Source: Spirochaetia bacterium
Lineage (GTDB): Bacteria; Spirochaetota; Spirochaetia; DSM-2461
DNA length: 64,000 bases
Assembly: GCA_963668315.1 (NCBI GenBank)
Contig: OY764216.1
Span: forward strand, 5,376,001 to 5,440,000
Direction: 5' to 3'
The notes beneath the pieces were generated by a model. The model saw only the letters and a list, made by a program, of their open reading frames with translations, did no database searches and was not told where the DNA came from. Positions within the stretch are counted from its first letter, which is position 1; each line of letters begins with the position of its first letter. Shown here piece after piece: positions 14,122 to 60,805 of this stretch. The translations under genes and the position numbers were made by a program.

Positions 14122-16515
14122 ATGAAGAAGTTGTCATTGCGATGGATTCTCATTTTGGGGATGCCCGGTCTGGTGATAGGAATGGTATCCCTTATTACCC
14201 TCTCTACCTACCTCTCCTCAAAACAGGCTTTCACTCACCACATACGGGATATCATGAGGAATATCTCCTCCTATACCATTGATAAGTCCCGGAGCCATCT
14301 CAATCCCGCCAAGGACGCCGCCCTCCTGACCAGCGGTCTGGCCGTGAGCAAAATCGTCACATCGAGCAAGAAGAGCGAGATGGAGAGCTACTTTTACGAA
14401 CAGCTTCTGGTAAATGCCCAGATTTCCAGCATTTACTACGGAACGGTGGAAGGGGAATTCGTCATGGTCTCCCGGGACGACCACGAAGGCTTCCTGACGA
14501 AGATCATCACCATTGACAACGGGGACAGAAACGTACTTTTCAAAGAGATGGACAAAACCTTTTCGGAACTGTACCGCTATAAGGAACCGAACGATACCTA
14601 TGATCCCCGGAAGCGGCCCTGGTTCAAGGATGCGATTAACGAGAAAAAGCTTATCTGGACCGATCCCTATGTCTTCTTCACATCCCGGAATCCCGGCATT
14701 ACCACGGCAAGTCCCGTCTATAATGCCAACGGCTCGCTGCACGGCGTGGTCGGGGTGGATATAGAGATATCCGAATTGTCCGATTTCATCAGCACCCTGA
14801 GTATCGGTGCAAGCGGGAAGGCGTTCATCCTCGATAACAACGGCCAGGTTCTGGCCTACCCCGAGAAGGAGAAAATCACCCATAAAACGGGGGAAAGCGA
14901 TACGGTCAGCCTCGTATCCATAGGGGAACTGGACGACCCGATCAGCCAGGAAGCATACAACGCCCTCAAATCGATTGAGTATGATCTGAACGGCGACAGC
15001 GAGATTTTCTTTACCTTCAAGCATGAGGGAAGAGTCTACCAGGCGATGTTCGCCCCCTTCAGGGCATCATACTGGCCGTGGCTTCTGGGAATCTATGTGG
15101 CGGAAGATGACTATATCGGCGTGATCAAGGAGAACAGGAACTACTCCGTTATCCTCTCCTTCGCCCTGGGGCTCATTACAGCCCTGATCGGTTTCCTTAT
15201 CACCCGAAGCATAGTCACCCCTCTGAACAAACTGCAGCTCGCCGCCAAGGAAGTGGCAAAGGGAAACCTGGATAAACCGCTGAAAAATGAGACGATTTAC
15301 CGGGAGCTCGATGAAACGGCGGAGATGTTCGAACTCATGAGGTCCGGTCTTAAGGAGAAAAAAAGAATAGAGGAGCAGTTCCAAAGAACCCAGAAGGTGG
15401 AGTCCATTGGAAGACTGGCCGGAGGAGTCGCCCACGATCTGAATAACCTCCTCACCCCGATTCTGGGTTACAGCGAAATTCTCATGCTGCGCCTGTCCGA
15501 TGACAAGAAAAAGCAGGGCCAGGTCAGGCAGATTCATAAGGCGGGCATCAAGGCAAAGGACCTGGTGAAACAGCTGCTGGCCTTCAGCCGCAATCAGGAG
15601 CTGGAATACAAACCCCTCGATCTGAACGGGGTGGTCTCCGGATTCCTGAATCTGCTGAGAAGAACGATCAGGGAAAACGTCGCCATCGAATTCTCAGGTT
15701 CCGACAGGCCTCCCGTTATTCTGGCCGACCAGGGCAAGATCGAACAGGTGATCATGAACCTTGCCGTCAACGGCCAGGACGCCATGCCGGACGGAGGCAC
15801 GATCCGAATAAGCATCTCCCTCGTCGAAAGGGAAGAACTGCCTGTGGAAATACGCCGGGAAGCGGAGAAAGAGCATTTCGCCCTCCTGACTGTCAGCGAC
15901 GAGGGCTGCGGAATGGACGAAGAGACCCAGAAGCATATATTCGAGCCATTCTTTTCGACCAAGGGAGAATTCGGCAACGGCCTGGGACTGGCGACAGTTT
16001 ACGGTATCGTCAGCCAGCATCACGGAAGAATCCTTGTCCGGAGCCGGTCTGATGAGGGCAGTACCTTCGAGGTCTATCTGCCCCTCTCCGATGAATCGCA
16101 GATCAGCGCAGCCTCGCCGGCCTCTCCGGAGAAATCGATCAGAGGAAGGGAAACCATTCTCGTGGCCGAGGACAACACCCAGGTCATGGAACTGACAAGG
16201 ACGATACTTGAAGATCTGGGATATGAAGTTATGTCGGCGGATAACGGTTTGACAGCTCTTGATATGCTGAACAGCGGCAGAGATCAGATTGATCTGCTTC
16301 TGAGTGATGTCATCATGCCTGAAATGAATGGAAAGGAACTCTTTGATAGAGCCCGTCAGGTTCACCCCGGTCTGAAAGTGCTTTATATGTCCGGCTATAC
16401 CGATAACAACATCGTTTCCCTCAGAGAAATAGAAAAGGAGCCGAACTTTATCCAGAAGCCCTTCTCCGCCACCGACCTGGCCCATAAAATACGCCAGATA
16501 CTGGATGGCAGATAA
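14122..16515 (+). CDS. Hybrid sensor histidine kinase (dCache-HAMP-HisKA-HATPase-REC)
   Basis: TM; YDPRKRPWF..WTDPY Cache motif; TM; HAMP; AHDLNN H-box; N/G/F boxes; SDVIMP receiver. Confidence 0.93.
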   Translation: MKKLSLRWILILGMPGLVIGMVSLITLSTYLSSKQAFTHHIRDIMRNISSYTIDKSRSHLNPAKDAALLTSGLAVSKIVTSSKKSEMESYFYEQLLVNAQISSIYYGTVEGEFVMVSRDDHEGFLTKIITIDNGDRNVLFKEMDKTFSELYRYKEPNDTYDPRKRPWFKDAINEKKLIWTDPYVFFTSRNPGITTASPVYNANGSLHGVVGVDIEISELSDFISTLSIGASGKAFILDNNGQVLAYPEKEKITHKTGESDTVSLVSIGELDDPISQEAYNALKSIEYDLNGDSEIFFTFKHEGRVYQAMFAPFRASYWPWLLGIYVAEDDYIGVIKENRNYSVILSFALGLITALIGFLITRSIVTPLNKLQLAAKEVAKGNLDKPLKNETIYRELDETAEMFELMRSGLKEKKRIEEQFQRTQKVESIGRLAGGVAHDLNNLLTPILGYSEILMLRLSDDKKKQGQVRQIHKAGIKAKDLVKQLLAFSRNQELEYKPLDLNGVVSGFLNLLRRTIRENVAIEFSGSDRPPVILADQGKIEQVIMNLAVNGQDAMPDGGTIRISISLVEREELPVEIRREAEKEHFALLTVSDEGCGMDEETQKHIFEPFFSTKGEFGNGLGLATVYGIVSQHHGRILVRSRSDEGSTFEVYLPLSDESQISAASPASPEKSIRGRETILVAEDNTQVMELTRTILEDLGYEVMSADNGLTALDMLNSGRDQIDLLLSDVIMPEMNGKELFDRARQVHPGLKVLYMSGYTDNNIVSLREIEKEPNFIQKPFSATDLAHKIRQILDGR

Positions 16516-16568
16516 AAAAACCGGAAAGCCCCAGTGAAAGGAGCTTCCCGGCATCCTGTTATTTTTTC

Positions 16569-19013
16569 CTATTTACCGGTTACCGAGTTAGCCGCCACGC
16601 GGCCCGATACGATAACTTCCGATACGGCGTTTCCGCCGAGACGGTTACCAGCGAAGATTCCGCCGGTCACTTCACCCGCCGCCCAGAGCCCGGGTATGAT
16701 TTCCCCGTTCTCGTTCAGCACATGGCGGTCGATGTCGATGGACAGACCTCCCATGGTATGGTGTGTGGAGGGAGCCAGGTAACGGAAGGAAAGCAGCCCG
16801 TCGTCATCAAAGCTGCCGTCCGCCTTATAGTTCCCGATCAGGGCAACGGCGGCCATTTTGGGAATTTCCAGCTCGGGAGTCGTTCCGTTCTTGTAGGCCT
16901 CATCGTAGTCTGCGATTGTCTTCTTCAGCGTGTCGTAATCGATGCCCAGCATCTCGGCCCCCTCGGTCAGAGTGCAGAAGTACTCCTCGTTGGGCCTGTT
17001 GTTGGCGGCCGTATTGTCCCGGGCGTTGGAGACCTGGATAAAAAGGCCGTCCTTGCCGCCCCAGTCATAGGCACCCTGGGCCAGAACATCCCGTTCCGCC
17101 GATTCATCGACATAGCGCTTGCCCGCATTGGGAGTGCCGGCGGGGCTTACGAAAATAACATCCTCGCCCCGGCCGTAGGCCAGAAAACCGGTGGTCTTCC
17201 AGCTTATGGGCATCAGCTGGGCGAAGCCCATGCCTTCCGTGGCGGCTCCCACTTTCTTTGCCATGGTGATTCCTTCGCCCATGGCCAGGGAGCGGTTGGT
17301 GGTTTTGATATTGACCGTCAGGTATTTGGGATTCCAGTACTCGTTGGTCTCCACCACCATCTCCGGGTTGTAGCCGTAACCGCCGGTGGCGAGAATGACG
17401 CCTTCTTTCGCGGTAATCTCCACTTCGGTTCCGTCATACTGAACCGCTTTGACGCCGGTAACGCGGCCGGATGCGTCGGTAACAAGCTCTTTAGCCGTGG
17501 TGCGGTAGTACACGTGGTTCTTGTCATTGGCGGTAAGCATGGTGTTCAGAGGCACGGCGAAGTAGGTTCCCCAACGTCCCGGAACTTCCACTCCGTTCAC
17601 AACACCCCCGTCAAAGGGGTTGATTCTCTGCCAGAGACAGCCGATCAGGGTCCGGGTAGCCTGGGTGTTATCGAATTTGGACCCCTGCCCGATCAGCCAG
17701 GCTTTGGTGTCCTGGATGCCCGTGCAGATCTGTCTGACCAGATCGTAATCACTGTAGATCCAGTGGCTCTTGTCAAAACTGACTCTCACGCCGCCGTAGT
17801 AGGTCTGGAAGATGTAGAGCTCGATCGTACTGAAAAGGGTCAGGTCCGTTTCGCTCTTTCCCGCCGCCAGCTGGGGCTCGGCCCAGGCAAGGTAAGCCCG
17901 GATCTGGCTCTTCAACGTTTTGAGGGTAGAGAGGTACTCCTGATGCACACCGCGGTTGGCCAGGTCGTAATCTTCCACGTTCTCCACATCGGCGGAAACG
18001 GTTTCGTCGAAGGGTTTCTCATTCCAGCTGAGAATCCATTTCAACGTATCGATACGGCCCTGTTCGGACTTGGACTTCTGAAGGGTCTCACCGGTGGGTT
18101 CGTAGTATCCAGAGGTAGCGTCCGGATTTTTCGGATCCCAGACCATGCACTCCATGACATTCTGGAAAGAGCATCCCGAAACGAGGGTATTTCCGCCCGC
18201 ATCGGCCTCTTTCTCAATGATACAGACGGTCGCACCGTTCATGGCGGCCTGAGCGCCAGCCATGACTCCCGCACCGCCGGCACCGACGATAACCACATCA
18301 TAGCTCTCTTCAATCTTGGTACCGGGCGTCAGGACATAGGGCTTGGCGCCGACACGCAGAGCGGGAAGATCGCATCCGGCCTGATTCGCCGCGTCTTCCA
18401 CGGCAGCGAGGACGGCATTGCTGGTATAGGTAGCTCCGGAAACCACATCCACTCCGGTGGAGGTGCAGTCCATGATCTCCTTGAAGATTATATCATAGGC
18501 ATAGGTACCCACATGATCGGTCTCATGGGACTCGGCCACGTTAATGCCGGTGATCGCCGAATCGGAAAAGGTCACGTCCAGTTTCACGGGGCCGTAGAAG
18601 CCGCCGCCCGTACCGGTATAGGAGCCGGCTTTAAAGGCGATCTCTCCCACTTCCACTTCCTTTCCCTGGGCCTGAGCCAGAGCGGAGGCGGCGGCTTCCT
18701 TGACCGCTTTGGTCGTTACGGAAGCTCCGGAGACACCGTCCACGTCGGCGGACTGCTCATCGAGAATCTGCTTTACCAGGGTTTTGTAGGCTTCTGCGGC
18801 AAAACCCTGGCCGCCCTCTTCATCGGTAATATCGACAGAGGTGATTTTGCTCTCGTCAACGGTTAATGTTACCGTGACATCGCCGTGCATGGCTTCCGCC
18901 GATGCCGAATATGTTCCGGGGGCAAAATCGTTGCCCTTGCCGCAAGCGGCCATGAACAGCATTCCCGCCGTTATAAGCAACAACGACAGAAAACGAAAAA
19001 CTTTGGATTTCAT
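16569..19013 (-). CDS. Lipoprotein flavocytochrome-c-family reductase (UrdA/fumarate reductase-like) with two FMN-binding domains
   Basis: Lipobox MAA-C; DGVSGAS and DVVSGAT flavinylation motifs; GAGGAG FAD site; LATGG; QLMP; HHTMGG; NRLGGNA. Confidence 0.88.
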   Translation of the reverse strand: MKSKVFRFLSLLLITAGMLFMAACGKGNDFAPGTYSASAEAMHGDVTVTLTVDESKITSVDITDEEGGQGFAAEAYKTLVKQILDEQSADVDGVSGASVTTKAVKEAAASALAQAQGKEVEVGEIAFKAGSYTGTGGGFYGPVKLDVTFSDSAITGINVAESHETDHVGTYAYDIIFKEIMDCTSTGVDVVSGATYTSNAVLAAVEDAANQAGCDLPALRVGAKPYVLTPGTKIEESYDVVIVGAGGAGVMAGAQAAMNGATVCIIEKEADAGGNTLVSGCSFQNVMECMVWDPKNPDATSGYYEPTGETLQKSKSEQGRIDTLKWILSWNEKPFDETVSADVENVEDYDLANRGVHQEYLSTLKTLKSQIRAYLAWAEPQLAAGKSETDLTLFSTIELYIFQTYYGGVRVSFDKSHWIYSDYDLVRQICTGIQDTKAWLIGQGSKFDNTQATRTLIGCLWQRINPFDGGVVNGVEVPGRWGTYFAVPLNTMLTANDKNHVYYRTTAKELVTDASGRVTGVKAVQYDGTEVEITAKEGVILATGGYGYNPEMVVETNEYWNPKYLTVNIKTTNRSLAMGEGITMAKKVGAATEGMGFAQLMPISWKTTGFLAYGRGEDVIFVSPAGTPNAGKRYVDESAERDVLAQGAYDWGGKDGLFIQVSNARDNTAANNRPNEEYFCTLTEGAEMLGIDYDTLKKTIADYDEAYKNGTTPELEIPKMAAVALIGNYKADGSFDDDGLLSFRYLAPSTHHTMGGLSIDIDRHVLNENGEIIPGLWAAGEVTGGIFAGNRLGGNAVSEVIVSGRVAANSVTGK

Positions 19014-19347
19014 CTTTTTGTTCTCCTCCTTACTCTTTCTCCCCCTGTCCGGCAGAAAATACTCTAACAGCACAGGACAATCCGCCGGCCCTTCACGTCG
19101 GGGAGAAATCGTTCAACAAATATAGATAATATTTTATTTAATCACCGCCCCGGACGTTTTGGCAAGAGTTTTACGGTTACAATTTTTCCCTTCCGGTTTC
19201 AATATGGAGGGTTCCCGGAAATCCCACCGCCCTATGATCAGACAAGCCCCTGTTGAAGCCCTTCTCCCCTTGTACAAACCTTCCCATTCCCGTAAAATGT
19301 GTACGGTCGTTTTCATAGGAACGCCTTTTACGGCCGCATATTTACAA

Positions 19348-20529
19348 ATGGAAGAATCGGACTTTTCCCATAAATATTTTGCTCTTCATCTCGTCCAGTT
19401 CATCAAGGGAATTCAGCTCGGCAATTTCGAAGATTTTGAAGAGCAGTGCCGCATCCATCTGAACTTTTCCGGCGAATATTATGTCTGCTGTGTCGCCCAG
19501 GCGGACAGGGAACGGGAACCGCCCCCTTCCCCGGAGAGTCTTACGGCTCCTGTTTATCATCTCCTTTCCCGTGATTTCCCCCTTTATCACCTTCCCCTGA
19601 ATGATTTTCTATCCGTTTTCATCATCAATTTAAGGGAAGAGAAGGAGAAGCAGAAGCTTAAGGACTCGCTGGAAAAAAACATATCCGCCCTCCCACGCCC
19701 TCTCTATCTTGGATTGGGCCGGGTGCGGAAAGGCATGGGCGACATCTGGAAATCCTACAGCGACGGCATGACCGCTCTGGCGGAGAAGGGCAAAACCGAA
19801 TCCTGCTCTATTCTCGACTCCGACCTGATCGATATCACCTATACGGTCCGGTACGGTTTCTCCGAAGAAAAGAGAATCATCAACTTTCTCGGTGTACAGG
19901 ATAGGGAAAATCTTATGGACCTCCTTCATGAGATTGTCCGACGCAACCGGGAGTCCCATCTGTCCCATAAGCATATGAATATACTTTTCACCCAGCTCTT
20001 CAATACGGGCATACGCTTTGCCGCCGAACTGGGACTTGATATGAAGAAAGTTTCCTCCGAATGGGAGCAGAAACTGCTTTTCAATACGGATAACAGCGAA
20101 ATAACCGATTATGAGGAAAAACTGGGAATCCTGAAAATTTTCTTTGAGAGGATCATGTTCCTCTGCCGGAAAGATCTTCGGGAACCCGCCCAGGTTCTGG
20201 TCGAGCGGGTTGTCGATTTTGTCCGGGATAACTTCCATAATAATCTTTACCCCGAAAAGGTGGCCGCCCATCTTGGACTGTCCGCCAAGTATATCTCTCA
20301 CATCTTCAAGGAGCAGACGGGGATCTCCCTGATAGATCATATCAGCACAGAACAGATAGAGCATTCGAAATGTCTTCTCCTCCATACAAACGAAAATGTG
20401 GACGATATCGGAAAGAAAGTAGGCATAGCCAACAGGGTGACCTTCTACCGCCTCTTCGTGAAGCACGAAGGAATCAGCCCCAGCGCCTTCAGGAAAAAGG
20501 CTCCCCCCTTTGTCAGGGGATGCCGATAA
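19348..20529 (+). CDS. AraC-family transcriptional regulator, possibly N-terminally truncated
   Basis: C-terminal double HTH (VAAHLGLSAKYISHIFK, FYRLF..EGISPSAFR) after a GGDEF-like region; start unclear (track ORF opens at 19159). Confidence 0.75.
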   Translation: MEESDFSHKYFALHLVQFIKGIQLGNFEDFEEQCRIHLNFSGEYYVCCVAQADREREPPPSPESLTAPVYHLLSRDFPLYHLPLNDFLSVFIINLREEKEKQKLKDSLEKNISALPRPLYLGLGRVRKGMGDIWKSYSDGMTALAEKGKTESCSILDSDLIDITYTVRYGFSEEKRIINFLGVQDRENLMDLLHEIVRRNRESHLSHKHMNILFTQLFNTGIRFAAELGLDMKKVSSEWEQKLLFNTDNSEITDYEEKLGILKIFFERIMFLCRKDLREPAQVLVERVVDFVRDNFHNNLYPEKVAAHLGLSAKYISHIFKEQTGISLIDHISTEQIEHSKCLLLHTNENVDDIGKKVGIANRVTFYRLFVKHEGISPSAFRKKAPPFVRGCR

Positions 20530-20573
20530 CCGGCTTAACAGAAATTCTCCTACTTCCCGAACCGGGGATTAAT

Positions 20574-20602
20574 TTGAGATTCCCCTTTTTATTCACTATA
20601 AT
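20574..20602 (+). promoter_or_regulatory. sigma70-type promoter of the mtaC operon
   Basis: TTGAGA(20574-20579)-N17-TATAAT(20597-20602) in an AT-rich spacer; AAAGGAG RBS before the GTG at 20635. Confidence 0.7.
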
Positions 20603-20634
20603 TAATTATTAGTAGCATAATAAAGGAGAAAGGA

Positions 20635-21381
20635 GTGGGAACGACCGAATCCCCTCAGAGTTTCAACCGCTATGATCTCATTCTCGAAGGGGAGAAAGAA
20701 GTAAAGCATACCCTTTCGAAGGATCCCGTATTCCAGCAGATCGCCCTTGAAGTCGTCAACGGAGACGAATTAAAAATCCTTGATGTGGTTTCCGCCTCCC
20801 TGAAAATAAAGACTCCCCAGGAGGTTATCAGCAAAGGACTCATTGTCGGCATGGATGAAGTCAGCCGCCTCTGGGCCGAAGGCTCCTATTTCCTTCCCCA
20901 GGTGATACTCTCCTCGGACACCATGCTGGCAGGCATAGCACTCTGCGAAAGGGAAATGGGAAAGTCCAGCGAGAAGAAAGGCCTGATTCTTTCCCACGTG
21001 GCGGAGGGGGATATCCATGACATCGGGCAGATGATTGTCAATTCCATACTCCAGGCCGCCGGTTACGAAGTGATTAATCTGGGGGTGGATGTTCCGGTGG
21101 ATCAGGTGGTTCAGGCCTGCCTTTCCTACCGTCCCCTGCTCCTGATGGGCTCGGCCCTTATGACGACCACCATGAGCGCCTTCCCGCGTATCGCCGCGAA
21201 ACTCCAGAGTCTGGACAGGCAGATTCCCTTCCTCTGCGGCGGAGGGGCTGTCAATGATGAATTTGTGAACAGCTTTGATCTGGGAATCTGGGGCAAAGAT
21301 CCCAACTGGGCGGTCGGTATGGCCGATGATGCGCTGAAAGGGCTCTCCTGGCAGCAGATCAGAAAAAAGTGGAATTCCTGA
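20635..21381 (+). CDS. mtaC: Methanol-type corrinoid protein
   Basis: B12 cap domain plus HVAEGDIHDIG (DxHxxG), ALMTTTM.AF and IPFLCGGGAVN, closely resembling Methanosarcina MtaC as I recall it. Confidence 0.88.
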   Translation: MGTTESPQSFNRYDLILEGEKEVKHTLSKDPVFQQIALEVVNGDELKILDVVSASLKIKTPQEVISKGLIVGMDEVSRLWAEGSYFLPQVILSSDTMLAGIALCEREMGKSSEKKGLILSHVAEGDIHDIGQMIVNSILQAAGYEVINLGVDVPVDQVVQACLSYRPLLLMGSALMTTTMSAFPRIAAKLQSLDRQIPFLCGGGAVNDEFVNSFDLGIWGKDPNWAVGMADDALKGLSWQQIRKKWNS

Positions 21382-21396
21382 CAGGGAGGCTAAGGC

Positions 21397-22767
21397 ATGA
21401 AATTATCCAGCACGATGGCCTATGACAGCGCGGATGAAATGATATTCGGTTCCTGCCGATCACCCCTGACAACGCGCAGGGGGCTCAGAATAGGGAGCGG
21501 CATGGTTATCCCCGAGATAGTGGTACATCCCCGGCCGGGCAGAGAAGCGACTCTGAAAGATCTGATCCGCGAATATGAACGGGCCTATGAAGAGGCGCTG
21601 ACCCGATGCGTTTCCATCGGAATCCCCCAGGTCTGCCTGGAAGTCGAGCATGTCATCCAGATGACCCAGAAGCCCGACTGGGGGGAGGAGATCGCCTCAG
21701 CCATCGCCGCGCTGACCGACTCCTACAGGGAGAGATACGGGATCACCGCCGCCTGCAAATTCACCATTGCCGATGTCCGTCGTCCCGCCCTCGGCCATAT
21801 GAGAGAGTCGGAACGGGCGGAGGAAGTGCTGGATTCCTTCAGGCGTAACGCCCCATTCGCCGATATACTGGCCATTGAATCCCTGGGGGGCAAGGAGATA
21901 TTCGATCACTGCATTATCCGCAATGACATCAAAGGCATGCTCTTCGCCCAGGCCGTGCTGGGGGGAAGGGACATGGAGTGGCTCTGGCCCCGGATTGTCG
22001 AAATAGCCCGGGAAAACGGCAGCCTTCCCGGCGGGGATACAAGCTGCGCCCATGCGAATACGGCCATGTTCATGGCCGGAGGCTACCTAAGCAGGCAGAT
22101 CCCCCATACCCTGGCGACCCTTTCCCGCGCCATCAGTGCGGGTAACACCCTGGTAGCCTATGAGTGCGGGGCCACGGGGCCGGGAAAAAACTGCGCCTAC
22201 GAAAATCCCATAATAAAAGCGGTCACCGGCGTCTCCATCTCCTGCGAGGGAAAGAGCAGCGCCTGCGCCCACTCCGATTTCTGCGGCAATCTGATCGGAG
22301 CCGTATGCGATCTCTGGTCAAATGAAGCGGTGGAGTTCCACTCCATGTTCGGGGGAACTTCGGCCGCGGTATTTACGGAGATACTGGGTTACGATACCGC
22401 CCTGATGAATTCGTCCATCAATCTGGGACTCGACCATCAGCTTAAGGCCAGCATGATCCATTCGGACCGTCTGCGCGATCCGCAGAGCTACATACTCTCC
22501 CCCGATATCGCCTGGAAAATCGGCAAAACCATAACGGAAAATTCCGAAAGCTATTACGCCAGATCCCGGGCCGCCGCCCTGAAAGGCGGAGAGCTGATTC
22601 TTGAAGAACCCCAGCTGGCTCTGACCGAATACGAAAAGAGTGCCCTGACGGGATATTTGAAGATTCTGGAAAATCTCCCCGGTGACCAGGAGAATTTCAT
22701 AGACCTCTGCCTCCATGATTATGCCGGAGTCAAAGGTTTCAGAAAAGAATCCTACGGATTTGATTAG
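21397..22767 (+). CDS. mtaB: Methanol:corrinoid methyltransferase
   Basis: MAYDSADEMIFG, IESLGGKE, GGDTSCAHANTAMF, GATGPGKNCAYEN, EGKSSACAHSD, DLWSNE; the putative Zn ligands Glu/Cys/Cys are present. Confidence 0.92.
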   Translation: MKLSSTMAYDSADEMIFGSCRSPLTTRRGLRIGSGMVIPEIVVHPRPGREATLKDLIREYERAYEEALTRCVSIGIPQVCLEVEHVIQMTQKPDWGEEIASAIAALTDSYRERYGITAACKFTIADVRRPALGHMRESERAEEVLDSFRRNAPFADILAIESLGGKEIFDHCIIRNDIKGMLFAQAVLGGRDMEWLWPRIVEIARENGSLPGGDTSCAHANTAMFMAGGYLSRQIPHTLATLSRAISAGNTLVAYECGATGPGKNCAYENPIIKAVTGVSISCEGKSSACAHSDFCGNLIGAVCDLWSNEAVEFHSMFGGTSAAVFTEILGYDTALMNSSINLGLDHQLKASMIHSDRLRDPQSYILSPDIAWKIGKTITENSESYYARSRAAALKGGELILEEPQLALTEYEKSALTGYLKILENLPGDQENFIDLCLHDYAGVKGFRKESYGFD

Positions 22768-22776
22768 GAGGGCGGC

Positions 22777-24414
22777 ATGTCAATCGGGATTGCTTTGGAT
22801 ATGGGAACAAGCGGGATCAGGTCGAGAGCCCTGGATCTTGAGTCGGGAGTCTGCCTCTCCGAAGCCTTCTCCACGGGGAATCCGATTCCCGGAACCAATC
22901 TGATGGCCCATCTCCAGTTCGCCCTTGAATCAGGCTCCGATAGGGCCAGGAATCTTCTTCTCGAAGGGGTGAACAGTATTATCGGACAACTGGGGGTGGA
23001 TCTGGGCAAAGTCACGAGAGTGGCGATAAACGGAAACCCCGCCGAGCTGTCCCTCCTCCAGGGGGAAGAGATTTATGACCTGGCCTATGCGGGCAGAAAT
23101 AAAGCGAGCCGCTATCTGAAGGACATCCCGGACAGGGACGGAACGCAGATTCCCTCCGGTGAGTTCGGAGGGCTGAATGTCCCCGATTCCTGCCTGGTAA
23201 TCATTCCCCCGGCGTTAAGCCATTACATTGGGGCAGACGGCCTCTCCATGATTCTGCAGAGCGGAATTCTCAACGAAGAAGAGCCCTCTCTGGTAACGGA
23301 TTTCGGAGCCAATGCCGAAATGGCCCTCTACCATCGCGGGCGGGTCTATACCGCTTCCGCCGCCGCCGGTTCGACTCTGGAAAGCCGGCATCTGCCCCGG
23401 GGACGATCGGCCGGACCGGGCGTCGTCACGGATATCACGGGCTGTTCCGGGGATCTCTGGTCAGCCACGATCCTGGACGGGCAGATGATTCCTTTCGCAA
23501 GTGATCCCTTTGATATGCGCCGGAAGAGCCGGATAGATGAGGGGAAGGAGGACTTAAGGTGGATCAGCGGCTCCGGAGTGATCTCCCTTATTGCCGAGGC
23601 ACTTGATGCGGGGATACTGAAGCCTCCGGTTATCCGCAGTCCCGACGGTCTGCTCCATGTGGGTAACAGCATAACCCTGAGCGGAGAGGACTGCGTGGAG
23701 ACAGGCAAAGCCGTCGGTTCCATCAGAGCGGGCCATATGACCCTGTGCCGCCAAGCGGGAATAGGATACGGCGATATTCAATCGGTCTATATTGCCGGAA
23801 CCCTGGGGACGTATACCGATCCGGTAAAGGCGCAGAAAATCGGTCTGATCCCCCCGGGTGCCGAAAGAATTATCCGCGTCGGGAATACGTCCCTGAAAAT
23901 GGCCTGTTCCCTTCTTACGGATCCGGATCTTCTGGAGAGAATGCAGCAGTTTGCCCTCCGCATCCGTCCGGACTACTGCAGTCTCTCCGAATCGGATACG
24001 TTCAAGAAGATTTTCCTGCTGGAACTCTCCCACTGGTCGGAGGGGATGTCTCTGGACATATATCAGAAGCTGCTGGCAAGATATGGCTGCTCCGGAATTC
24101 CCCAAAGGACGGAAAATCCTTCGGTCGTGACTCCCGATTCGGAGGATGGGGAGGGGAACCATCCCCGCCGCAGCTCCCTTGTCACCCGATTCGGTCAGCT
24201 CCCTTCCTGCCCCGTGGCCGGCTGCACTTCCTGCGGAGTCTGTGTCGATCAGTGCCCCAAAGCGGCTCTGAGCCTTGATAAGGAGGGGGGGCCGTCGAAT
24301 CTGAAGCTGGACAGATCCCTCTGCCTGGGGGTGGCCTGCCGGAAATGCGAGCGGGTCTGTCCCGAACATGTCATGGAACTGGAGCCTTTTTTCCAGGCCG
24401 GAGGAGGAGCTTAA
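22777..24414 (+). CDS. ramA: ATP-dependent corrinoid reductive activase, RamA-type (ASKHA plus C-terminal 2x[4Fe-4S])
   Basis: GIALDMGTSG, GNP..LSLLQ..EI.DLAYAG, IGAD, TDFGANAEMAL, TASAAAG; C-terminal CTSCGVCVDQCP and CLGVACRKCERVCP. Confidence 0.88.
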   Translation: MSIGIALDMGTSGIRSRALDLESGVCLSEAFSTGNPIPGTNLMAHLQFALESGSDRARNLLLEGVNSIIGQLGVDLGKVTRVAINGNPAELSLLQGEEIYDLAYAGRNKASRYLKDIPDRDGTQIPSGEFGGLNVPDSCLVIIPPALSHYIGADGLSMILQSGILNEEEPSLVTDFGANAEMALYHRGRVYTASAAAGSTLESRHLPRGRSAGPGVVTDITGCSGDLWSATILDGQMIPFASDPFDMRRKSRIDEGKEDLRWISGSGVISLIAEALDAGILKPPVIRSPDGLLHVGNSITLSGEDCVETGKAVGSIRAGHMTLCRQAGIGYGDIQSVYIAGTLGTYTDPVKAQKIGLIPPGAERIIRVGNTSLKMACSLLTDPDLLERMQQFALRIRPDYCSLSESDTFKKIFLLELSHWSEGMSLDIYQKLLARYGCSGIPQRTENPSVVTPDSEDGEGNHPRRSSLVTRFGQLPSCPVAGCTSCGVCVDQCPKAALSLDKEGGPSNLKLDRSLCLGVACRKCERVCPEHVMELEPFFQAGGGA

Positions 24415-24415
24415 G

Positions 24416-25228
24416 ATGGCGGTACTGGGAATTATCACCTGCGAAATCCTCGGAGAGGAAATGGCCTCCCTTATCGCCGGCGAGCATGATCTCTCCTCTA
24501 TCACGATCATAGATGATCCCCAGGCGAAACACCTCATGGAAGCCCTTTCTCAGAGATGTGATACGCCGGTGCAGCCGATTCCCCATGTGTCCGCCTATCT
24601 CTCCTCCGGAACGGGATGGGAGATTCTCATAAAGGTAATGGAAGTCGGACTGCATACTCACAGGGAAAAGATGCGCCGGCGACTCCGCGGAGAAGCCCTG
24701 GCCTTCGAACGATATATAGATGCCCTGATGCTGGGTTTCGGCCTATGCGGCGGGGCGCTGACCCGTCCCGGGGAACTGCTTGACCTCCGCTGCCCCCTCT
24801 TTTTCCCCCGTGAGGGGGATTCTCCCCCGGCGGACTGCATTTCCATCTGCCTGGGAGGAGACGGGGAATATGAAAGGGAAAGGCGGCGGGAAGCGGGAAC
24901 CTATTATATAACGGCAGGCTGGAGCCGTTACTGGCGTGATGCCCTAGAACGGGAAACTGCGGTACGGAGGGAGCAGCTCTCTCCTTTTTTCGACCGCCGG
25001 ATCATGGCCCGCTACGAACGGATACTGGTCATAGACAACGGGGTGACTCCCCGGCCTCTCCTCATGGAAGGGGCCGAAAAGCTTTCACATCTGACGAATC
25101 TGGAGATTTGTGAAAGGAAAGGGTCCCTCTGCCGTCTGAGTGCCTGTTACCGGGAAGCCAGAGAGGCGGTTCAGGAGAGGAGCGGGGATTTGAGCGGCGT
25201 CCGCACCTATGATTTATCAAGGGGATGA
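24416..25228 (+). CDS. DUF1638-family protein
   Basis: LGIITCEIL..E, EVGLH, GFGLCGG, DCISICLGG, GTYYITAGW; GGAGGAG RBS; starts 1 nt after the ramA stop. Confidence 0.8.
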   Translation: MAVLGIITCEILGEEMASLIAGEHDLSSITIIDDPQAKHLMEALSQRCDTPVQPIPHVSAYLSSGTGWEILIKVMEVGLHTHREKMRRRLRGEALAFERYIDALMLGFGLCGGALTRPGELLDLRCPLFFPREGDSPPADCISICLGGDGEYERERRREAGTYYITAGWSRYWRDALERETAVRREQLSPFFDRRIMARYERILVIDNGVTPRPLLMEGAEKLSHLTNLEICERKGSLCRLSACYREAREAVQERSGDLSGVRTYDLSRG

Positions 25229-25229
25229 C

Positions 25230-28200
25230 ATGGATTTAGCCCAGGTAAAAATTCAGGACCTCCAGCTCGTTCACAAGGGAAAGATGTCCAGCATCTACCG
25301 GCTGGATAACGCAGAGGACGGGAGAACTGTGGCGCTGAAAATAACAAACAGCCTCTCCCCCCGCAGCGAAGAACCGGAAAGACTGGCAAATGAACTGAAT
25401 ATTTCCCGAAATTTTACCATCCCCGGTCTGCGAAAAGCCCTCGGATCGGGAAAGGTAGAAGGCCGATCAGCCATTGTCCTCGAGTGGGTGGAAGGGAAAA
25501 CCCTCAGGGAAATCTGCCCCGGGGGGCCGGATATTGATTATCTGAAAAAACTGACCATAGCCCGGAATGTCGCAGGAAACCTGACGGAGCTTCATAAACT
25601 CAATATTATCTATAAGAACCTTAACAGCGAAAATATCCTTGTGGCCGGGGACCTGAAAACAACCCTTATTGATTTTTCCCTCGCCGGCCACGGTTCACGG
25701 TCGTCCCTCCCCGTTCTTTCCGGAAAAAACGAGGGGGATTTTGCCTATACGGCTCCGGAACAGACGGGAAGGACGGACTTACCCATGGACTATCGGGCCG
25801 ACCTCTACTCCCTGGGAGTGCTGCTGTACGAGCTTTTCAGCGGAAAGCTGCCCTTCTCGGGAGAGAACGCCTACGAACTGATCTACGAACATATAACCCG
25901 AATCCCCAGGGAGCTTTACCTGGTGGACCGGGAACACCCCCGGGTTCTTTCCGATATTGTCATGAAACTTCTGAATAAAAATCCCGATGAGCGGTATCAG
26001 ACAGCCTACGGCGTATACAGCGATCTGGAAAACGCCCTCAAACAGTACATGGACAAGGGCTCGATAGACCCCTTTGAATTATGCCGCAACGATATATCCG
26101 GCCATCTTCTGACGGGAGAGAATCTATATGTCCGGGAGGAGAAACTGGAAGATCTTAAGAAAGCCTACGGGAAAGCCCTGTCGGGGAACCAGCAGGTCCT
26201 GCTGCTGACCGGTCCGGCAGGGACGGGCAAAACTCTACTTGTGAATGAATTTAAAAAAATCGTTCAGAAGAATAGAGGGATTTTCGTCTCAGGCTCTTTT
26301 GACCAGTATAAAAAACATGTGCTATTCAACGGCCTGAATCAGGCTCTGACAGCTCTTGTCGGCTCTCTCACCCGCTATGAATCGGATCGTCTTCAGAAGC
26401 TGGGCGACAAACTGCAGGAAGAGACACTCCTTATGACCGAACCGATGACGACTCTCTTCCCCCAGTTGAAGCCGCTGTTTTCCCGACGCCGCTCCCCCGG
26501 TTCTCCCGGCCCTTTCAGTGAGGAACGGCTCCTTTCGTCCGTTCACAGGGTTCTCTCCTTTCTGGCCCGTGAGTGCCGGCCCCTGGTCCTCTTTCTCGAC
26601 GATCTGCAATGGGCCGATTCCACCACGGTCAAACTGATAGAAGCCCTGATAGACGACAGAGACGGAGCTCCCCTGCTGTTCATCGGGGCCATGGACAATT
26701 CCGCGGCCCTTAGCGATGATTATAATAAATCACCGGATATCCTAAGGAAACTGACAGCCCATGCGTCCCTGATAACCATAGAGCTGGAGAACCTGGACCG
26801 CGGCTCGTTCATCAGCTTTCTCAAGGATATCCTTCTCCGGGAAGACAAAGAGATGCTGAGCCTGGCCGAAGATCTCTACGGGAAAACCGGCGGCAACCCT
26901 CAGCTTACCATCGACTATATCTACTCCCTCTACCGGGAAGGATCCCTCTATTTCGATTTCGAGGCCAGGATGTGGAGCTGGGATACCGGGGCCCTGGACG
27001 AAAAAAACGCCTTAGTCGATATATCCAGCACCACGTCCCATACACTGGAACAGCTCTCCCCTTCCTGTCGGGAACTGCTGACGGCGGCCTCCTGCATAGG
27101 AGACCGGTTCAGCCTCGACCTCCTTGCTTCCCTCAAAAAATGGGATATCAAGAGAATCAGAGACGATCTGGAGGAGGCCGTAAAAGCCTTCCTCATTGCC
27201 CCCGTTCAGCCCGAAGGCTACACTCCCGGCTCCCCTGAGGATCGGGAGGGCGAGTCACATATCTACCATTTCACCCATGCCTACATAAGAAGAATTGCCA
27301 ATGCCCTCCTTTCCTCCCGGGAAAAGCGCAGGCTCCATTTTTCCCTGGGGCAGAATTATCTCGAGGTGTACTCCCGGGATGAACTGGAAGCCCATCTGTT
27401 TGATGTAGCCGATCAGTTAAATGAGGGCTTTCAATATATAAAGAAGCCGGAAAAGCTCCGCGAACTGGCTGAATTGAACCTGAGGGCGGGAAAAAAGGCC
27501 CTCAGTTTCGGTCTCCATAAGTCAGCCACCAGATACCTGAATATGGGAGTCGGCCTCCTCCCCGTCAGCCGGTGGGAGACGGCCCCCGCGCTGTGCCTGG
27601 ATTTTTACCAGCAGATCCTGGAAGCGGAATATCTGAGCCAGAATTATTCCCGGGTTCTGACGATCGCCTCGGAACTTGAGTTCCACTCCCGCGACCCGGA
27701 GATTACACGGAAAATCCATAGATACAGAATACTGGCCTACTCGGCCCAGGGTGACTACAAGGAAGCGTTTCAATCATCCCTGAATGCTCTGGACTCCCTG
27801 GGGCTGCTGAACAGAGAGGATATTCCCCTGGCCTCCCTGTCCCGGACGATTACCCCGGTTCAGATGGATATGGTATCCATCATCAAGGCGACCCATACCC
27901 TCTCCAGGGAGATTCATCTGGAAAGCCTTCTGGAAAAATTCATCCTCATTGTCATGGAAAATGCGGGGGCCGACAAGGGGGTTCTCATCATCGAAGAGGA
28001 GGGAGAAATGAATATTCTCTGCCAGGCCAGCAGAGGGCCCGAGACGGAGATTACCCGAGAAAGAACTCCCTACAGGACCAGCGAGGCGGTTCCCCTGTCG
28101 GTGATTGACGCCGTCATCAACAGCAAGGAGGAAGTCATACTGGGAAATGCCCTTCATAACTCGACCCTTTCGGGAGACGACTACATAGCAAAGAATCAGG

Positions 28201-29933
28201 TTTTGTCCATTCTGGCCCTTCCTATCATGCACCAGAGCAATATGATGGGGGTTCTCTATCTGGAGAACAGATTAATGGCCAATGTCTTTCTCAAGGATCA
28301 CCTCCAGCTCCTTAACGTTCTGGTCACCCAGGCGGCCATATCCATTCAGATTGCCCAGCTCTACACCAGCCTCGAGGGGAAAATCAAGGAACTGGAAAAA
28401 ACCCAGAAGGCCCTGCTCGAGTCCAGGACATGGCTCGATCAGATTATCAACGCCGTGCCCGATCCTATTTTCGTGAAGGACAGCCGGCATAAGTGGATAC
28501 TTCTGAATAACTCTTTCTGCCATCTCATGGGACTGACGAAGGACGATATCATCGGAAAGATGGACTATGATCTATTCAAGAAGTCCGAGGCCGAAGTCTT
28601 CTGGGCCAAGGATGAGGAGGTCCTTCACTCGGGAACGGAAAATATCAATGAGGAGACACTGACCGACACATCCGGTGAGATTCACACCCTTGTCACCAAA
28701 AAGGACCGCTACACCGATAAGGGGGGGAATCATTATATCGTCGGTATTATCCGGGATATCACCGAACAGGTAAAACTGGAGGGGCAGCTCCAGCAGAAGG
28801 CCAAGCTGGAAGCGGTCGGCCGCCTTGCCGGCGGGGTCGCCCACGATTTCAACAATATGCTCGGGGCCATACTGGGCTACGGGGAAATAGCCCTTGAACA
28901 GACCTCTCCCGGTGATCCGGTGAACTCCGCCCTGACCGAAATCATGGAAGCGGCCACCCGCTCCGCCGATATAACCCGCCAGCTGCTCGCCTTTGCCAGA
29001 AAGCAGACGGTGGCGCCGAAAGTGATTGACATTAACGATATCATCATCGGCATGCTGAATATGATCCGCCGTCTCATCGGAGAAAATATTGAGCTCCACT
29101 GGACCCCGGGGAATAACCTCTGGAAAGTGAAGATGGATCCGTCCCAGATTGATCAGATACTGGTCAATCTGTGTGTGAACGCAAAAGATGCCATGCAGAC
29201 GGGGGGAACAATATCCATAGAAACGGGAACGGAGAGTTTTGACGAGGAGTTCTGCCGGAACGAACTGGGTTTTCTTCCGGGGGATTTTGTCTATATCTCG
29301 GTCAGGGATACGGGCTGCGGCATGGATGAGCAGACCCGGGAGCATATTTTTGAACCCTTCTTCACGACGAAAGGCATCAATAAGGGAACCGGGCTCGGCC
29401 TGGCTACCGTATACGGCATAGTGAAGCAGAACTCGGGCTTTATCAAAGTCTACAGTACAACGGGAGAAGGGACAGAGTTCAAGATTTTCCTGAGCCGGGA
29501 AAACGAACGGGAGAAACGGGACGATCAGAAAAAAGGAGAAGAGACTCTGCTCAGGGGAAAGGAGACCATTCTGCTGGTCGAAGACGAGCCGGTGATTCTC
29601 AAACTGGCCCGGACGATTCTGGAGCAGCTGGGATATACGGTCCTCTATGCCGGTTCGGCGGCGAAAGCCCTGGAATTGGCGGAAAAGAAAAAACAGGAGA
29701 TTGACCTTCTGCTGACCGATGTAGTCATGCCCGATATGAACGGTTCGGAATTATCGGAAAAACTCAGAGAAATGATACCCGGCCTGCGCTGCCTTTTCAT
29801 GTCCGGGTATCCCGCCAATGTGGTAACCCAGCAGGGGATTCTGGACAGTGCGGTCAATTATCTGCAGAAGCCCTTTTCAAAGACGGAAATGTCGATCAAG
29901 GTCCGCAGGGTCCTTGATGCTCCCCTATCCTGA
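25230..29933 (+). CDS. Multidomain sensor: Ser/Thr (pseudo)kinase-AAA ATPase-GAF-PAS-HisKA-HATPase-REC
   Basis: VALK, YKNLNSEN, DFS, APEQTGR, DLYSLG; GPAGTGKT and LDDLQWAD; GAF (GVLYLEN); PAS; AHDFNN; TDVVMP; ATG 1 nt after the DUF1638 stop (alternative start 25209). Confidence 0.92.
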   Translation: MDLAQVKIQDLQLVHKGKMSSIYRLDNAEDGRTVALKITNSLSPRSEEPERLANELNISRNFTIPGLRKALGSGKVEGRSAIVLEWVEGKTLREICPGGPDIDYLKKLTIARNVAGNLTELHKLNIIYKNLNSENILVAGDLKTTLIDFSLAGHGSRSSLPVLSGKNEGDFAYTAPEQTGRTDLPMDYRADLYSLGVLLYELFSGKLPFSGENAYELIYEHITRIPRELYLVDREHPRVLSDIVMKLLNKNPDERYQTAYGVYSDLENALKQYMDKGSIDPFELCRNDISGHLLTGENLYVREEKLEDLKKAYGKALSGNQQVLLLTGPAGTGKTLLVNEFKKIVQKNRGIFVSGSFDQYKKHVLFNGLNQALTALVGSLTRYESDRLQKLGDKLQEETLLMTEPMTTLFPQLKPLFSRRRSPGSPGPFSEERLLSSVHRVLSFLARECRPLVLFLDDLQWADSTTVKLIEALIDDRDGAPLLFIGAMDNSAALSDDYNKSPDILRKLTAHASLITIELENLDRGSFISFLKDILLREDKEMLSLAEDLYGKTGGNPQLTIDYIYSLYREGSLYFDFEARMWSWDTGALDEKNALVDISSTTSHTLEQLSPSCRELLTAASCIGDRFSLDLLASLKKWDIKRIRDDLEEAVKAFLIAPVQPEGYTPGSPEDREGESHIYHFTHAYIRRIANALLSSREKRRLHFSLGQNYLEVYSRDELEAHLFDVADQLNEGFQYIKKPEKLRELAELNLRAGKKALSFGLHKSATRYLNMGVGLLPVSRWETAPALCLDFYQQILEAEYLSQNYSRVLTIASELEFHSRDPEITRKIHRYRILAYSAQGDYKEAFQSSLNALDSLGLLNREDIPLASLSRTITPVQMDMVSIIKATHTLSREIHLESLLEKFILIVMENAGADKGVLIIEEEGEMNILCQASRGPETEITRERTPYRTSEAVPLSVIDAVINSKEEVILGNALHNSTLSGDDYIAKNQVLSILALPIMHQSNMMGVLYLENRLMANVFLKDHLQLLNVLVTQAAISIQIAQLYTSLEGKIKELEKTQKALLESRTWLDQIINAVPDPIFVKDSRHKWILLNNSFCHLMGLTKDDIIGKMDYDLFKKSEAEVFWAKDEEVLHSGTENINEETLTDTSGEIHTLVTKKDRYTDKGGNHYIVGIIRDITEQVKLEGQLQQKAKLEAVGRLAGGVAHDFNNMLGAILGYGEIALEQTSPGDPVNSALTEIMEAATRSADITRQLLAFARKQTVAPKVIDINDIIIGMLNMIRRLIGENIELHWTPGNNLWKVKMDPSQIDQILVNLCVNAKDAMQTGGTISIETGTESFDEEFCRNELGFLPGDFVYISVRDTGCGMDEQTREHIFEPFFTTKGINKGTGLGLATVYGIVKQNSGFIKVYSTTGEGTEFKIFLSRENEREKRDDQKKGEETLLRGKETILLVEDEPVILKLARTILEQLGYTVLYAGSAAKALELAEKKKQEIDLLLTDVVMPDMNGSELSEKLREMIPGLRCLFMSGYPANVVTQQGILDSAVNYLQKPFSKTEMSIKVRRVLDAPLS

Positions 29934-29944
29934 TCTCCGAGGTA

Positions 29945-29976
29945 CCGGCGGGAAGAACGAAGAAACTTCCCGCCGG
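29945..29976. terminator. Hairpin between the convergent kinase and fucO genes
   Basis: Perfect 11-bp stem CCGGCGGGAAG / CTTCCCGCCGG. Confidence 0.7.
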
Positions 29977-29993
29977 CATAGGGTTCTCTCTAT

Positions 29994-31142: not shown

Positions 31143-31289
31143 AATATTTCTCCTTGATATATCAGGCGGACAGCAGTAATTTCCGGCCGCCGTAAAGATT
31201 CGAAATGTATTATGACAGTATTATGCCGCCCCTTGGGGGAAGGCTCAAGTGACAGATATTTCAAAGTGTAACTTTTTATCGATATTTTT

Positions 31290-31847: not shown

Positions 31848-31908
31848 TATTACCCTACCTCTGCTTCAGTATATGGATCATAAACCTGTTTTTGTATATT
31901 ATCAAAGA

Positions 31909-32103
31909 ATGAGCGGACAGGAAAGAAAAAATATTCATCCCGGACTGGAAGTCAATATTGTCCTGAAAAAGGATCAGCGAAGCGGAAATCTGACCAGGGG
32001 AGTTGTAAAGGATATCCTGACCAATTCCTCCTTTCATCCCCACGGGATCAAAGTGCGCCTGGAGGACGGGCAGATCGGCAGGGTACAGGAAATCATCGAA
32101 TAA
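31909..32103 (+). CDS. YwbE (DUF2196) family protein
   Basis: VNIVLKKDQRSG.LT.GVVKDILT.S..HPHGIKVRLEDGQIGRV. Confidence 0.9.
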   Translation: MSGQERKNIHPGLEVNIVLKKDQRSGNLTRGVVKDILTNSSFHPHGIKVRLEDGQIGRVQEIIE

Positions 32104-32114
32104 AGGAAAATCGA

Positions 32115-58635: not shown

Positions 58636-58701
58636 GGGAACACCTCGTCCGATTTTCGTCCAAAGCCATACTTCGACGCGATCTGCTTCAGGGAAACGGC
58701 C

Positions 58702-60741: not shown

Positions 60742-60805
60742 GATGAACTCCGGGAGAGGATTGCGTCAAAGGTGCAACGGCGATGCGGGGTCAGGCCGGG
60801 CCTGT

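Follow-up and report, generated by a model that had tools for sequence, protein, structure and literature searches.

A bacterial five-gene cassette for predicted methanol:corrinoid methyl transfer in a spirochaete genome

The closest described counterpart of the system considered here is that of Methanosarcina barkeri, in which the first methyltransferase (MT1), MtaBC (PDB 2I2X), is accompanied by the activase RamA; in methanogens, the second-step methyltransferase (MT2) is MtaA (PMC5770442, PMC8048578). Bacterial cobalamin-dependent methanol activation is described for the acetogens Sporomusa, Moorella and Acetobacterium, in which the methyl group passes from MtaBC via MtaA to tetrahydrofolate and into the Wood-Ljungdahl pathway (PMC8048578, PMC5770442). 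Two MtaA proteins and genes of B12 synthesis form part of the methanol operon of Desulfotomaculum (Desulfofundulus) kuznetsovii, Desku_0050-60, and the MtaB of that operon clusters with those of methanogens and not acetogens, for which horizontal transfer was suggested (Sousa et al. 2018, PMC5770442); it is a precedent for a methanogen-like MT1 in a non-methanogen. In the Roseobacter group, the corrinoid proteins of a split methionine synthase and of the glycine-betaine system MtgBC are served by a RamA-family activase together with a DUF1638 protein. Phaeobacter mutants of either the activase or DUF1638 are methionine auxotrophs, and the two genes co-occur across the α-proteobacteria (PMC5764234, PMC12478193). 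The subject of this report is a related locus in a 64,000-nucleotide stretch of DNA, hereafter the window, which covers positions 5376001-5440000 of the single-contig, 5,624,497-base (5.62 Mb) genome of a Spirochaetia bacterium (GCA_963668315.1, contig OY764216.1). It consists of five genes at 20635-29933 of the window: mtaC, mtaB, ramA, a DUF1638 gene and a gene for a giant sensor kinase.

We consider it quite probable that these genes are a bacterial operon for predicted transfer of methanol's methyl group to a cobalamin protein and for upkeep of its cofactor, and that the operon was acquired horizontally from bacteria, not archaea. With the M. barkeri system it has in common the three protein families, the mtaC-mtaB order, the residues aligned with the zinc site, the MtaC motifs and the architecture of RamA. 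It differs in that its MtaB falls in a separate clade and below the methanogen equivalog cut-offs, with Methanosarcinaceae MtaBs 44-45% identical, in that the operon joins ramA, DUF1638 and the giant kinase, and in that the host has no coenzyme-M pathway context. Whereas the acetogens pass the methyl group on through MtaA (PMC8048578, PMC5770442), the spirochaete genome has neither a linked MtaA nor a match to CdhC/AcsB. Unlike the D. kuznetsovii operon, the cassette lacks MtaA, carries DUF1638 and the kinase, and resides in a spirochaete without sulfate-reduction or Wood-Ljungdahl context. The Roseobacter activase is a ferredoxin plus DUF4445 protein distant from RamA and the methyl donor there is methyl-tetrahydrofolate or glycine betaine, whereas the activase of the window passes the methanogen RamA model and the donor enzyme is MtaB (PMC5764234, PMC12478193). 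Other bacterial five-gene cassettes share the gene order and the absence of a linked MT2, but the window copy is the only one in 401 sampled Spirochaetota. The locus is, in this sample, the first spirochaete member of a machine-annotated bacterial variant of the methanol:corrinoid methyltransferase system that is, as far as we have searched, uncharacterised.

A sequence-only reading of this DNA had regarded 20635-24414 as an archaeal, Methanosarcina-type mtaCB-ramA module. That range is filled exactly by three open reading frames (ORFs) of 248, 456 and 545 amino acids, but the unit comprises five genes rather than the three of that reading. The gaps between them are 15, 9, 1 and 1 nucleotides, a purine-rich ribosome-binding site precedes each, and the unit is a tight operon. 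Its second gene, mtaB (21397-22767, forward strand, as are all five), encodes a zinc-dependent methanol:corrinoid methyltransferase by its match to PF12176, which scores 611.1 bits against a cut-off of 25 (E 1.7e-183) and aligns residues 2-454 with positions 2-460 of the 460-position profile. Its best match in the PDB is M. barkeri MtaB (2i2x_A, E 3.2e-128), aligned over the full length. In that alignment, E161, C217 and C266 stand opposite E164, C220 and C269 of the M. barkeri protein, which are reported to be the zinc ligands (Hagemeier et al. 2006). The predicted function of MtaB is the methanol-dependent methylation of a Co(I)-corrinoid.

The corrinoid carrier would be the product of mtaC (20635-21381), which has an N-terminal extension followed by B12-binding_2 and B12-binding domains (Pfam) and for which the best PDB match is M. 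barkeri MtaC (2i2x_B, E 2.9e-52). The motifs HVAEGDIHDIG (residues 121-131) and CGGGAVN (201-207) both align with the same motifs of 2i2x_B. The first of them contains the DxHxxG signature as D126-x-H128-x-x-G131, and His128 is the predicted lower cobalt ligand.

The third gene, ramA (22777-24414), is predicted to encode the ATP-dependent activase that reduces the cobalt of the corrinoid protein from Co(II) to Co(I). Its Pfam domains are Raco_middle (4-164), RACo_C_ter, which is the ASKHA domain (169-425), and a Fer4 dicluster (483-530), with no match to Fer2 or RACo_linker. The protein passes the methanogen RamA model TIGR04270 (552.5 bits, cut-off 500) and fails the AcsV/RACo model (72.5 bits, cut-off 800). 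Two C-terminal cysteine motifs of the 4Fe-4S type lie at 483-494 and 516-529; across 33 cassette-type RamA homologues, the invariant residues include G10-T11-S12-G13, C483, C489, C493, C516, C521, C524 and C528, and C486 is nearly so. RACo paralogs of two cassette-bearing bacteria provide a comparison, in that three of the four combine Fer2, linker, middle and ASKHA domains. The particulars on which the sequence-only reading relied are thereby borne out: an activator with an ASKHA domain, two C-terminal 4Fe-4S motifs and no 2Fe-2S domain, as in methanogen RamA; its contrast with bacterial RACo, which carries an N-terminal 2Fe-2S domain; the N-terminal extension of MtaC, its HVAEGDxHDIG and CGGGAVN motifs and the mtaC-mtaB order; and the bacterial character of the flanking genes and promoter, described below.

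The activase is not uniform across related cassettes. In three of nine loci (L007, L008 and L010), RamA is 476-514 residues long and ends without the C-terminal two-cluster ferredoxin tail, and the route by which electrons enter must differ in these proteins. A classical 2Fe-2S RACo-type activase is encoded about 25 kb from the cassette of an Oceanispirochaeta metagenome-assembled genome (MAG), on the same contig (L018, G441:C2:27601-31356); the genome of the window has no second RACo-family gene beyond the cassette ramA.

The fourth gene (24416-25228) encodes a 270-residue protein of the Pfam family DUF1638. Its ATG at 24416 lies one base past the ramA stop, a start set by the N terminus MAVLGIITCEI, which is conserved in eight other cassettes, and the residues C9, E10, H57, H80, C111, D140 and C141 are invariant in nine cassette proteins. 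An AlphaFold2 model (mean predicted local distance difference test score 86.8) is a two-lobed α/β protein. Compared with the PDB by Foldseek, it has no match at E≤0.001, and in a wide structure search the best hit is the Asp racemase 3s7z_A (Z 9.5, 119 residues aligned, root-mean-square deviation 3.3), along with many Rossmann-like rows at Z 7-8. The likeness to Asp/Glu racemases is too weak to name either a fold or a function. DUF1638 is genetically tied to a RamA-like activase and to B12 reactivation in Phaeobacter (PMC5764234), and both DUF1638 and a RamA-like protein rise on methylated osmolytes in Ruegeria (PMC12478193). The cassette protein is likely to be a redox or metal-binding helper of RamA, with an accessory role in corrinoid reactivation.

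The last gene (25230-29933, with the start at 25209 or 25230) encodes a giant sensor protein of 1,567-1,574 amino acids with Pkinase, AAA_16, GAF, PAS, HisKA, HATPase_c and receiver domains (Pfam). We predict that it is the regulator of the cassette and sets the expression of the operon. The next best match to its N-terminal 880 residues in the genome of the window is 26% identical, so that this part lacks a close paralog there; the kinase is therefore likely to have come in together with the rest of the cassette. In one cassette of the Desulfobulbaceae type (L035:13574-20947), the kinase is larger, at 2,457 amino acids, and contains an additional PocR domain (E 5.4e-49) between PAS and HisKA, a hint that the ligand sensed by cassette kinases is a small alcohol-like molecule or a cofactor.

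The five genes recur together. A one-genome-per-species scan gave nine loci, one of which (L010) is cut inside mtaB, and these were compared with the window proteins by tblastn for the analysis of synteny. The MtaB identities to the window are 73% for the Oceanispirochaeta MAG and 69% for both Desulfogranum japonicum and an uncultured Desulfosarcina; the remainder, at 60-63%, are two Desulfobulbaceae MAGs and single records under the names Bacteroidetes, Pseudomonadota, Phycisphaerae and "bacterium". The order mtaC-mtaB-ramA-DUF1638-kinase is found in Oceanispirochaeta, Desulfobulbaceae, Desulfosarcina, Bacteroidota, Phycisphaerae and other bacterial records. Gene by gene, mtaC is present in all eight loci that have upstream sequence, ramA in all nine, DUF1638 in eight (not L009) and the kinase in eight (not L004). 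Identities to the window are 60-73% for MtaB, 56-69% for MtaC, 41-52% for RamA, 31-45% for DUF1638 and 31-50% for the kinase. A scan of metagenome contigs added three loci, two of which repeat known types (L004 and L008) by identity.

The clade to which these cassettes belong is large and spans several bacterial phyla. A search with MtaB of 5.8 billion clustered proteins returned 1045 matches at E≤1e-20, which are not necessarily all of the cassette clade; the best 120 of the 1045 are all 59-96% identical and mostly 455 amino acids long. Source names among the listed matches include Desulfogranum, Desulfobulbus, Desulfobulbaceae, Desulfomonilaceae, Rhodocyclaceae, Chloroflexota, Anaerolineae, Opitutaceae and Candidatus Thiodiazotropha, and one MAG labelled Methanospirillaceae, which is placed amid bacterial rows in the trees. 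Named bacterial RamA matches are 41-46% identical to that of the window and named archaeal ones 36-41%, and the nearest relatives of all five proteins, MtaB, MtaC, RamA, DUF1638 and the kinase, belong to bacterial cassettes.

Phylogenies were built for MtaB (FastTree, 90 rows; IQ-TREE with LG+C20+F+G4 and support from the Shimodaira-Hasegawa-like approximate likelihood ratio test, 52 rows) and for RamA (FastTree, 133 rows; IQ-TREE, 51 rows), the latter rooted on 2Fe-2S-type RACo paralogs from two cassette-bearing genomes. The named archaeal MtaBs were recruited with a 263-residue piece of the protein; the representative search alone listed none above 43% identity at full length and no Methanosarcinales. 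In this way, the named rows from outside the cassettes came to comprise Methanosarcina spelaei, Methanimicrococcus, a Methanosarcinaceae MAG, Methanomassiliicoccales, Methanomethylophilaceae, Methanobrevibacter smithii, Hadarchaeum, Hodarchaeota, Armatimonadota, a Bacillota MAG and "bacterium".

In both MtaB trees, the cassette proteins form one clade with a support of 100, the sister of which is P0454, a sequence with no source name. Together they take part in a four-way polytomy with a pair from Hadarchaeum, a set of seven rows among which are the Bacillota and "bacterium" clusters, and a methanogen clade of 15 rows (support 96). Within the cassette clade, Oceanispirochaeta is the sister of the window copy (99-100), and both lie inside a set of Desulfogranum, Desulfobulbus and Desulfosarcina (100). 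BLASTP identities to the window MtaB run from 61-73% for bacterial cassettes through 53% for P0454 and for the Bacillota MAG and 48-49% for Hadarchaeum to 44-45% for Methanosarcinaceae, 43% for Methanomassiliicoccales, 42% for M. smithii and 39% for Hodarchaeota. A second and distant MtaB group (36-44% where full length), the named members of which are Armatimonadota, stands apart from the cassette clade; our guess is that it includes the acetogen type. In the RamA trees too, the window and Oceanispirochaeta form a pair (100) within a set of Desulfobacterota (96-99), and all named archaeal RamAs gather in one separate clade (98-99). When rooted, these trees place the bacterial cassettes basal to the archaeal clade, but the root lies on a very long branch and we draw no direction from it.

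These trees bear directly on the origin that the sequence-only reading had favored, by which the spirochaete would recently have received a Methanosarcina-type mtaCB-ramA module in a direct transfer from a methanogen. Such a transfer would account for the methanogen architecture of RamA and its passing of TIGR04270, and it is M. barkeri proteins that provide the best solved structures for both MtaB and MtaC, with the MtaC motifs common to the two. The closest homologues of all five genes are nevertheless bacterial, the Methanosarcinaceae MtaBs are less similar than those of the bacterial cassettes (44-45% versus 60-73%), DUF1638 and the kinase accompany the bacterial cassette, and MtaB and MtaC both score under the methanogen equivalog cut-offs. 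In an approximately unbiased (AU) test, a tree constrained to unite the cassette clade with the six Methanosarcinaceae rows is worse by 78.7 log-likelihood units (p-AU 5.4e-12); the grouping tested was the hypothesis of the sequence-only reading, and the test was run after the tree had been seen. We regard direct transfer from a methanogen as very improbable. What survives of that reading is its other suggestion, a poorly described bacterial clade, and with it the prediction of methanol activation in an unexpected lineage. Of the phylogenies that it had called for, those of MtaB and RamA both place the window in a bacterial, Desulfobacterota-associated clade. Of the two features by which that reading was to be refuted, good sampling and vertical inheritance of such a clade, the first applies and the second, in the Spirochaetota, does not (1 of 401 genomes). 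Archaeal MtaB and RamA are relatives of the whole family, so that an ancient transfer between the domains, whichever way it went, likely lies behind it; the trees give no direction.

The distribution of the cassette is sparse. MtaB (PF12176) occurs in one of 41 genomes of a set of relatives that includes three congeners and 21 other members of the family, the one being the genome of the window itself, which is also the only one among 401 sampled Spirochaetota (1 of 336 of high quality). It was found in three of 401 genomes sampled from the phylum of Desulfogranum, Desulfogranum included, and not found in the congener G001, whose RpoB is 96% identical and whose genome is 96% complete. A 96%-identical MtaB on a 1.52-Mb contig and an approximately 92.5%-identical relative in a run of another study imply that close relatives of the strain have the cassette too. 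The pattern is that of a rare accessory unit moving between bacterial phyla. As the nearest relatives outside the spirochaetes are Desulfobacterota, transfer from bacterium to bacterium is likely, and we conclude that the cassette was likely acquired horizontally from other bacteria and not from archaea. A single acquisition by the family with later losses would fit, and so would a further transfer inside the family; the two are indistinguishable here.

An unusual taxonomic distribution is all that speaks for the alternative that misassembly or contamination has put foreign genes into a spirochaete chromosome, a possibility that the sequence-only reading had raised. The genome is a single 5.62-Mb contig, and 15000-33000 is contained in one contig, with 0 differences and uniform word depth, in each of two runs from a single sample, from which the genome may derive. 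A 34,956-base contig from another study and under another organism label spans 19905-33000 at approximately 92.5% identity (982 substitutions, 9 gaps). This contig crosses both borders of the cassette, namely the AraC-mtaC junction and the junction of the kinase with the gene downstream; misassembly is excluded by this independent contig. Adding the 96%-identical MtaB on its 1.52-Mb contig, we judge an artifact of either kind to have a negligible chance of being the explanation.

The window contains no methyltransferase of the URO-D, MtrH or pterin-binding type, and the genome has no MtrH and 0 matches to PF03598 (CdhC/AcsB, acetyl-CoA synthase), for which the control was positive in methanogens. 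As no acetyl-CoA synthase was found, the methyl group would not feed acetogenesis, and the organism is not an acetogen. The genome does encode one methylenetetrahydrofolate reductase (MTHFR), MetF, and one full-length MetH; homocysteine and pterin modules occur only in MetH, apart from a pterin-type protein resembling dihydropteroate synthase, and there is no stand-alone homocysteine methyltransferase. MtaC is the only stand-alone corrinoid protein, the other B12-binding matches being MetH, three radical-SAM-type proteins and one helix-turn-helix regulator. Two of the related cassettes have one-carbon genes nearby, L007 an MTHFR and its partner and L003 a CdhD-like fragment.

A single URO-D-family gene (C1:2174812-2176185), unlinked to the cassette and amid unrelated housekeeping genes, scores 149.7 bits with an MtaA/CmuA-like model (cut-off 235.4) and 61.9 with the HemE model and is fused to a thioredoxin-like domain. 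This fusion is our best guess for a candidate MT2, tentatively held and with the balance of chances against it. Its thioredoxin-like tail gives a weak match to thioredoxin-like selenoprotein models (HUIPC motif, 31.7 bits, NCBIfam). The homologue in the congener G003 (L028, G003:C187:3316-4665, minus strand) contains one in-frame TGA and may be a selenocysteine form.

Several observations weigh against the reading of the locus as a horizontally acquired operon for methanol. MtaB scores 601.8 bits, below the cut-off of 720 of the methanogen equivalog NF040651, and MtaC scores 230.2 and 231 bits, below the cut-offs of 420 and 450 of the methanogen equivalogs NF040655 (MtaC_Meth) and NF040669, so that the assignment of methanol as the substrate rests on homology. 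No MT2 was found within 5-10 kb of any of the 12 cassette loci, in a scan that took in 31 of 35 ORFs of at least 130 amino acids at the nine genome loci, leaving out four truncated at an edge, and 11 ORFs at the three metagenome loci, leaving out those that duplicate L004 or L008. Nor does the MtaA-like gene track the cassette. G003, which has no MtaB, carries a 66% homologue and the Oceanispirochaeta MAG one of 47%; neither in G001 nor in Desulfogranum was a homologue found. The composition of the cassette is native-like, with a GC content of 54.9% against 51.3 ± 4.7% for the genome and a tetranucleotide distance that is exceeded by 24% of windows, and mobile-element genes were not seen beside it in the window; there is accordingly no direct mark of recent transfer. 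The flanks of the window copy, moreover, differ from those of the Oceanispirochaeta copy.

The ordinary composition would also be expected if the cassette were ancestral in the spirochaete family and had been lost from nearly all of its members. In favor of such vertical descent, the only other spirochaete copy, that of the Oceanispirochaeta MAG, is the sister of the window copy in both the MtaB and RamA trees, and at 79% its RpoB identity is at the level of other genera of the family (75-79%). Against this, MtaB is present in none of the 24 other genomes of the family and none of the 400 other sampled Spirochaetota, being absent from all three congeners, including that with a 96%-identical RpoB; the two spirochaete copies nest inside the Desulfobacterota set, and their flanks are not syntenic. 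Vertical descent is, on balance, improbable. Borders of an island could not be set by synteny with the congeners, where the only gene with a match was that of a histidine kinase (14122-16515), which is 70-73% identical in DNA and 72% in protein and has neighbors there that are not syntenic.

The equivalog scores and the lack of a traveling MT2 bear on a different alternative, according to which the module is real but serves no catabolic methanol pathway, either taking its methyl group from another donor or charging a corrinoid for methionine synthesis or biosynthetic methylation only. The lack of an accompanying MT2, which holds for all 12 loci and their surroundings, would thereby be accounted for. 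It is consistent with a genome that has neither MtrH nor CdhC/AcsB and has its homocysteine or pterin modules only inside MetH, with equivalog cut-offs that are not reached, and with the PocR small-molecule sensor domain of one cassette kinase. On the other hand, the residues opposite the zinc site of M. barkeri MtaB are conserved and the identity to a structurally characterised MtaB extends over the full length, folate and one-carbon genes lie beside the cassette in L007 and L003, and the genome has no stand-alone homocysteine methyltransferase. We consider this alternative unlikely, and the preferred reading remains that of an operon for methanol.

By homology to M. barkeri MtaBC and RamA, the operon for methanol would work as follows. 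MtaB, with zinc at E161, C217 and C266, would polarise methanol, and the methyl group would be taken by MtaC in its Co(I) form. Whenever Co(I) became oxidised to Co(II), RamA would restore it with ATP and with electrons delivered through its two 4Fe-4S clusters, likely aided by DUF1638 in this corrinoid repair, while the kinase would likely control expression of the operon. Methyl-MtaC might then be unloaded by the fusion protein, either into the folate and methionine pool, for which MetF and MetH are present, or onto a thiol.

A bolder possibility, to which we give a low though not trivial probability, is that the cassette is a self-contained, mobile unit for harvesting methyl groups from methanol that has no dedicated MT2, so that an enzyme of the host, the MtaA-like-thioredoxin fusion or MetH, unloads methyl-MtaC. 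If this were true, methyl groups of methanol could enter the methionine or folate metabolism of a fermentative spirochaete, the giant kinase would rank as the first sensor of methanol (or of the state of the corrinoid) in bacteria, and DUF1638 would be an obligatory partner of RamA.

The absence of MT2 and the recurrence of DUF1638 and the giant kinase are traits of the cassette family rather than of the window locus alone, which is one more member of that family and carries a correspondingly lower individual weight. Through the cassette, a few members of several bacterial phyla, to which a spirochaete is now added, have a predicted means to compete for methanol. In our literature search, with subscription journals outside its coverage, neither the five-gene cassette, its kinase, its DUF1638 protein nor its want of an MT2 was found described, and with the same coverage nothing was found on MtaB in Spirochaetota. 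As far as searched, the clade appears in print only as machine annotation ("MtaB domain-containing protein") or in the mtaB counts of MAG surveys, which report the gene in many bacterial phyla (PMC10805028, PMC11264602). This has a bearing on the use of mtaB as a marker of methylotrophic methanogenesis in metagenome surveys (PMC12287602). The bacterial clade (listed members 59-96% identical) shares its Pfam family with the MtaBs of methanogens (39-49%), and some source annotations give MtaBs of the cassette clade the methanol:cobamide methyltransferase name of the methanogen enzymes; counts of mtaB can therefore include non-methanogens.

The surroundings of the operon are of bacterial type, comprising genes for an AraC regulator, a flavocytochrome-like reductase and a lactaldehyde reductase. 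A sigma-70-like promoter site, TTGAGA-17-TATAAT (20574-20602, forward strand), lies 32 nucleotides 5' of the mtaC start; it is a consensus match only, agrees at 11 of 12 consensus positions and is the best among 13 sites in 19000-31500, for which shuffles give 7.7 ± 3.2 sites. The AraC-family regulator (19159-20529, forward strand) has a HTH_18/HTH_AraC C terminus and a GGDEF_2-like middle (Pfam, NCBIfam) and is a neighbor outside the conserved cassette. It has no counterpart in the eight loci with upstream sequence and is retained in the approximately 92.5%-identical relative from the run of another study. The gene that adjoins it upstream (16569-19073, minus strand) encodes an 834-residue protein with two FMN_bind domains, a flavocytochrome-c/FAD_binding_2 reductase domain and a lipoprotein-like N terminus, and this gene too is present in the approximately 92.5%-identical relative.

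Directly 3' of the kinase, at 29994-31142 on the minus strand, lies the lactaldehyde reductase (FucO equivalog, 656.9 bits, cut-off 537). An iron-containing alcohol dehydrogenase is also encoded upstream of the Bacteroidetes-type cassette L004, and this is probably a coincidence. At the far end of the window, in its most GC-rich part (58-65%), a run of four large genes (53773-63993, minus strand; 1620, 679, 449 and 682 amino acids) encodes proteins with caspase (Peptidase_C14) and/or WD40 domains and looks like a STAND/caspase-type conflict or signaling cluster.

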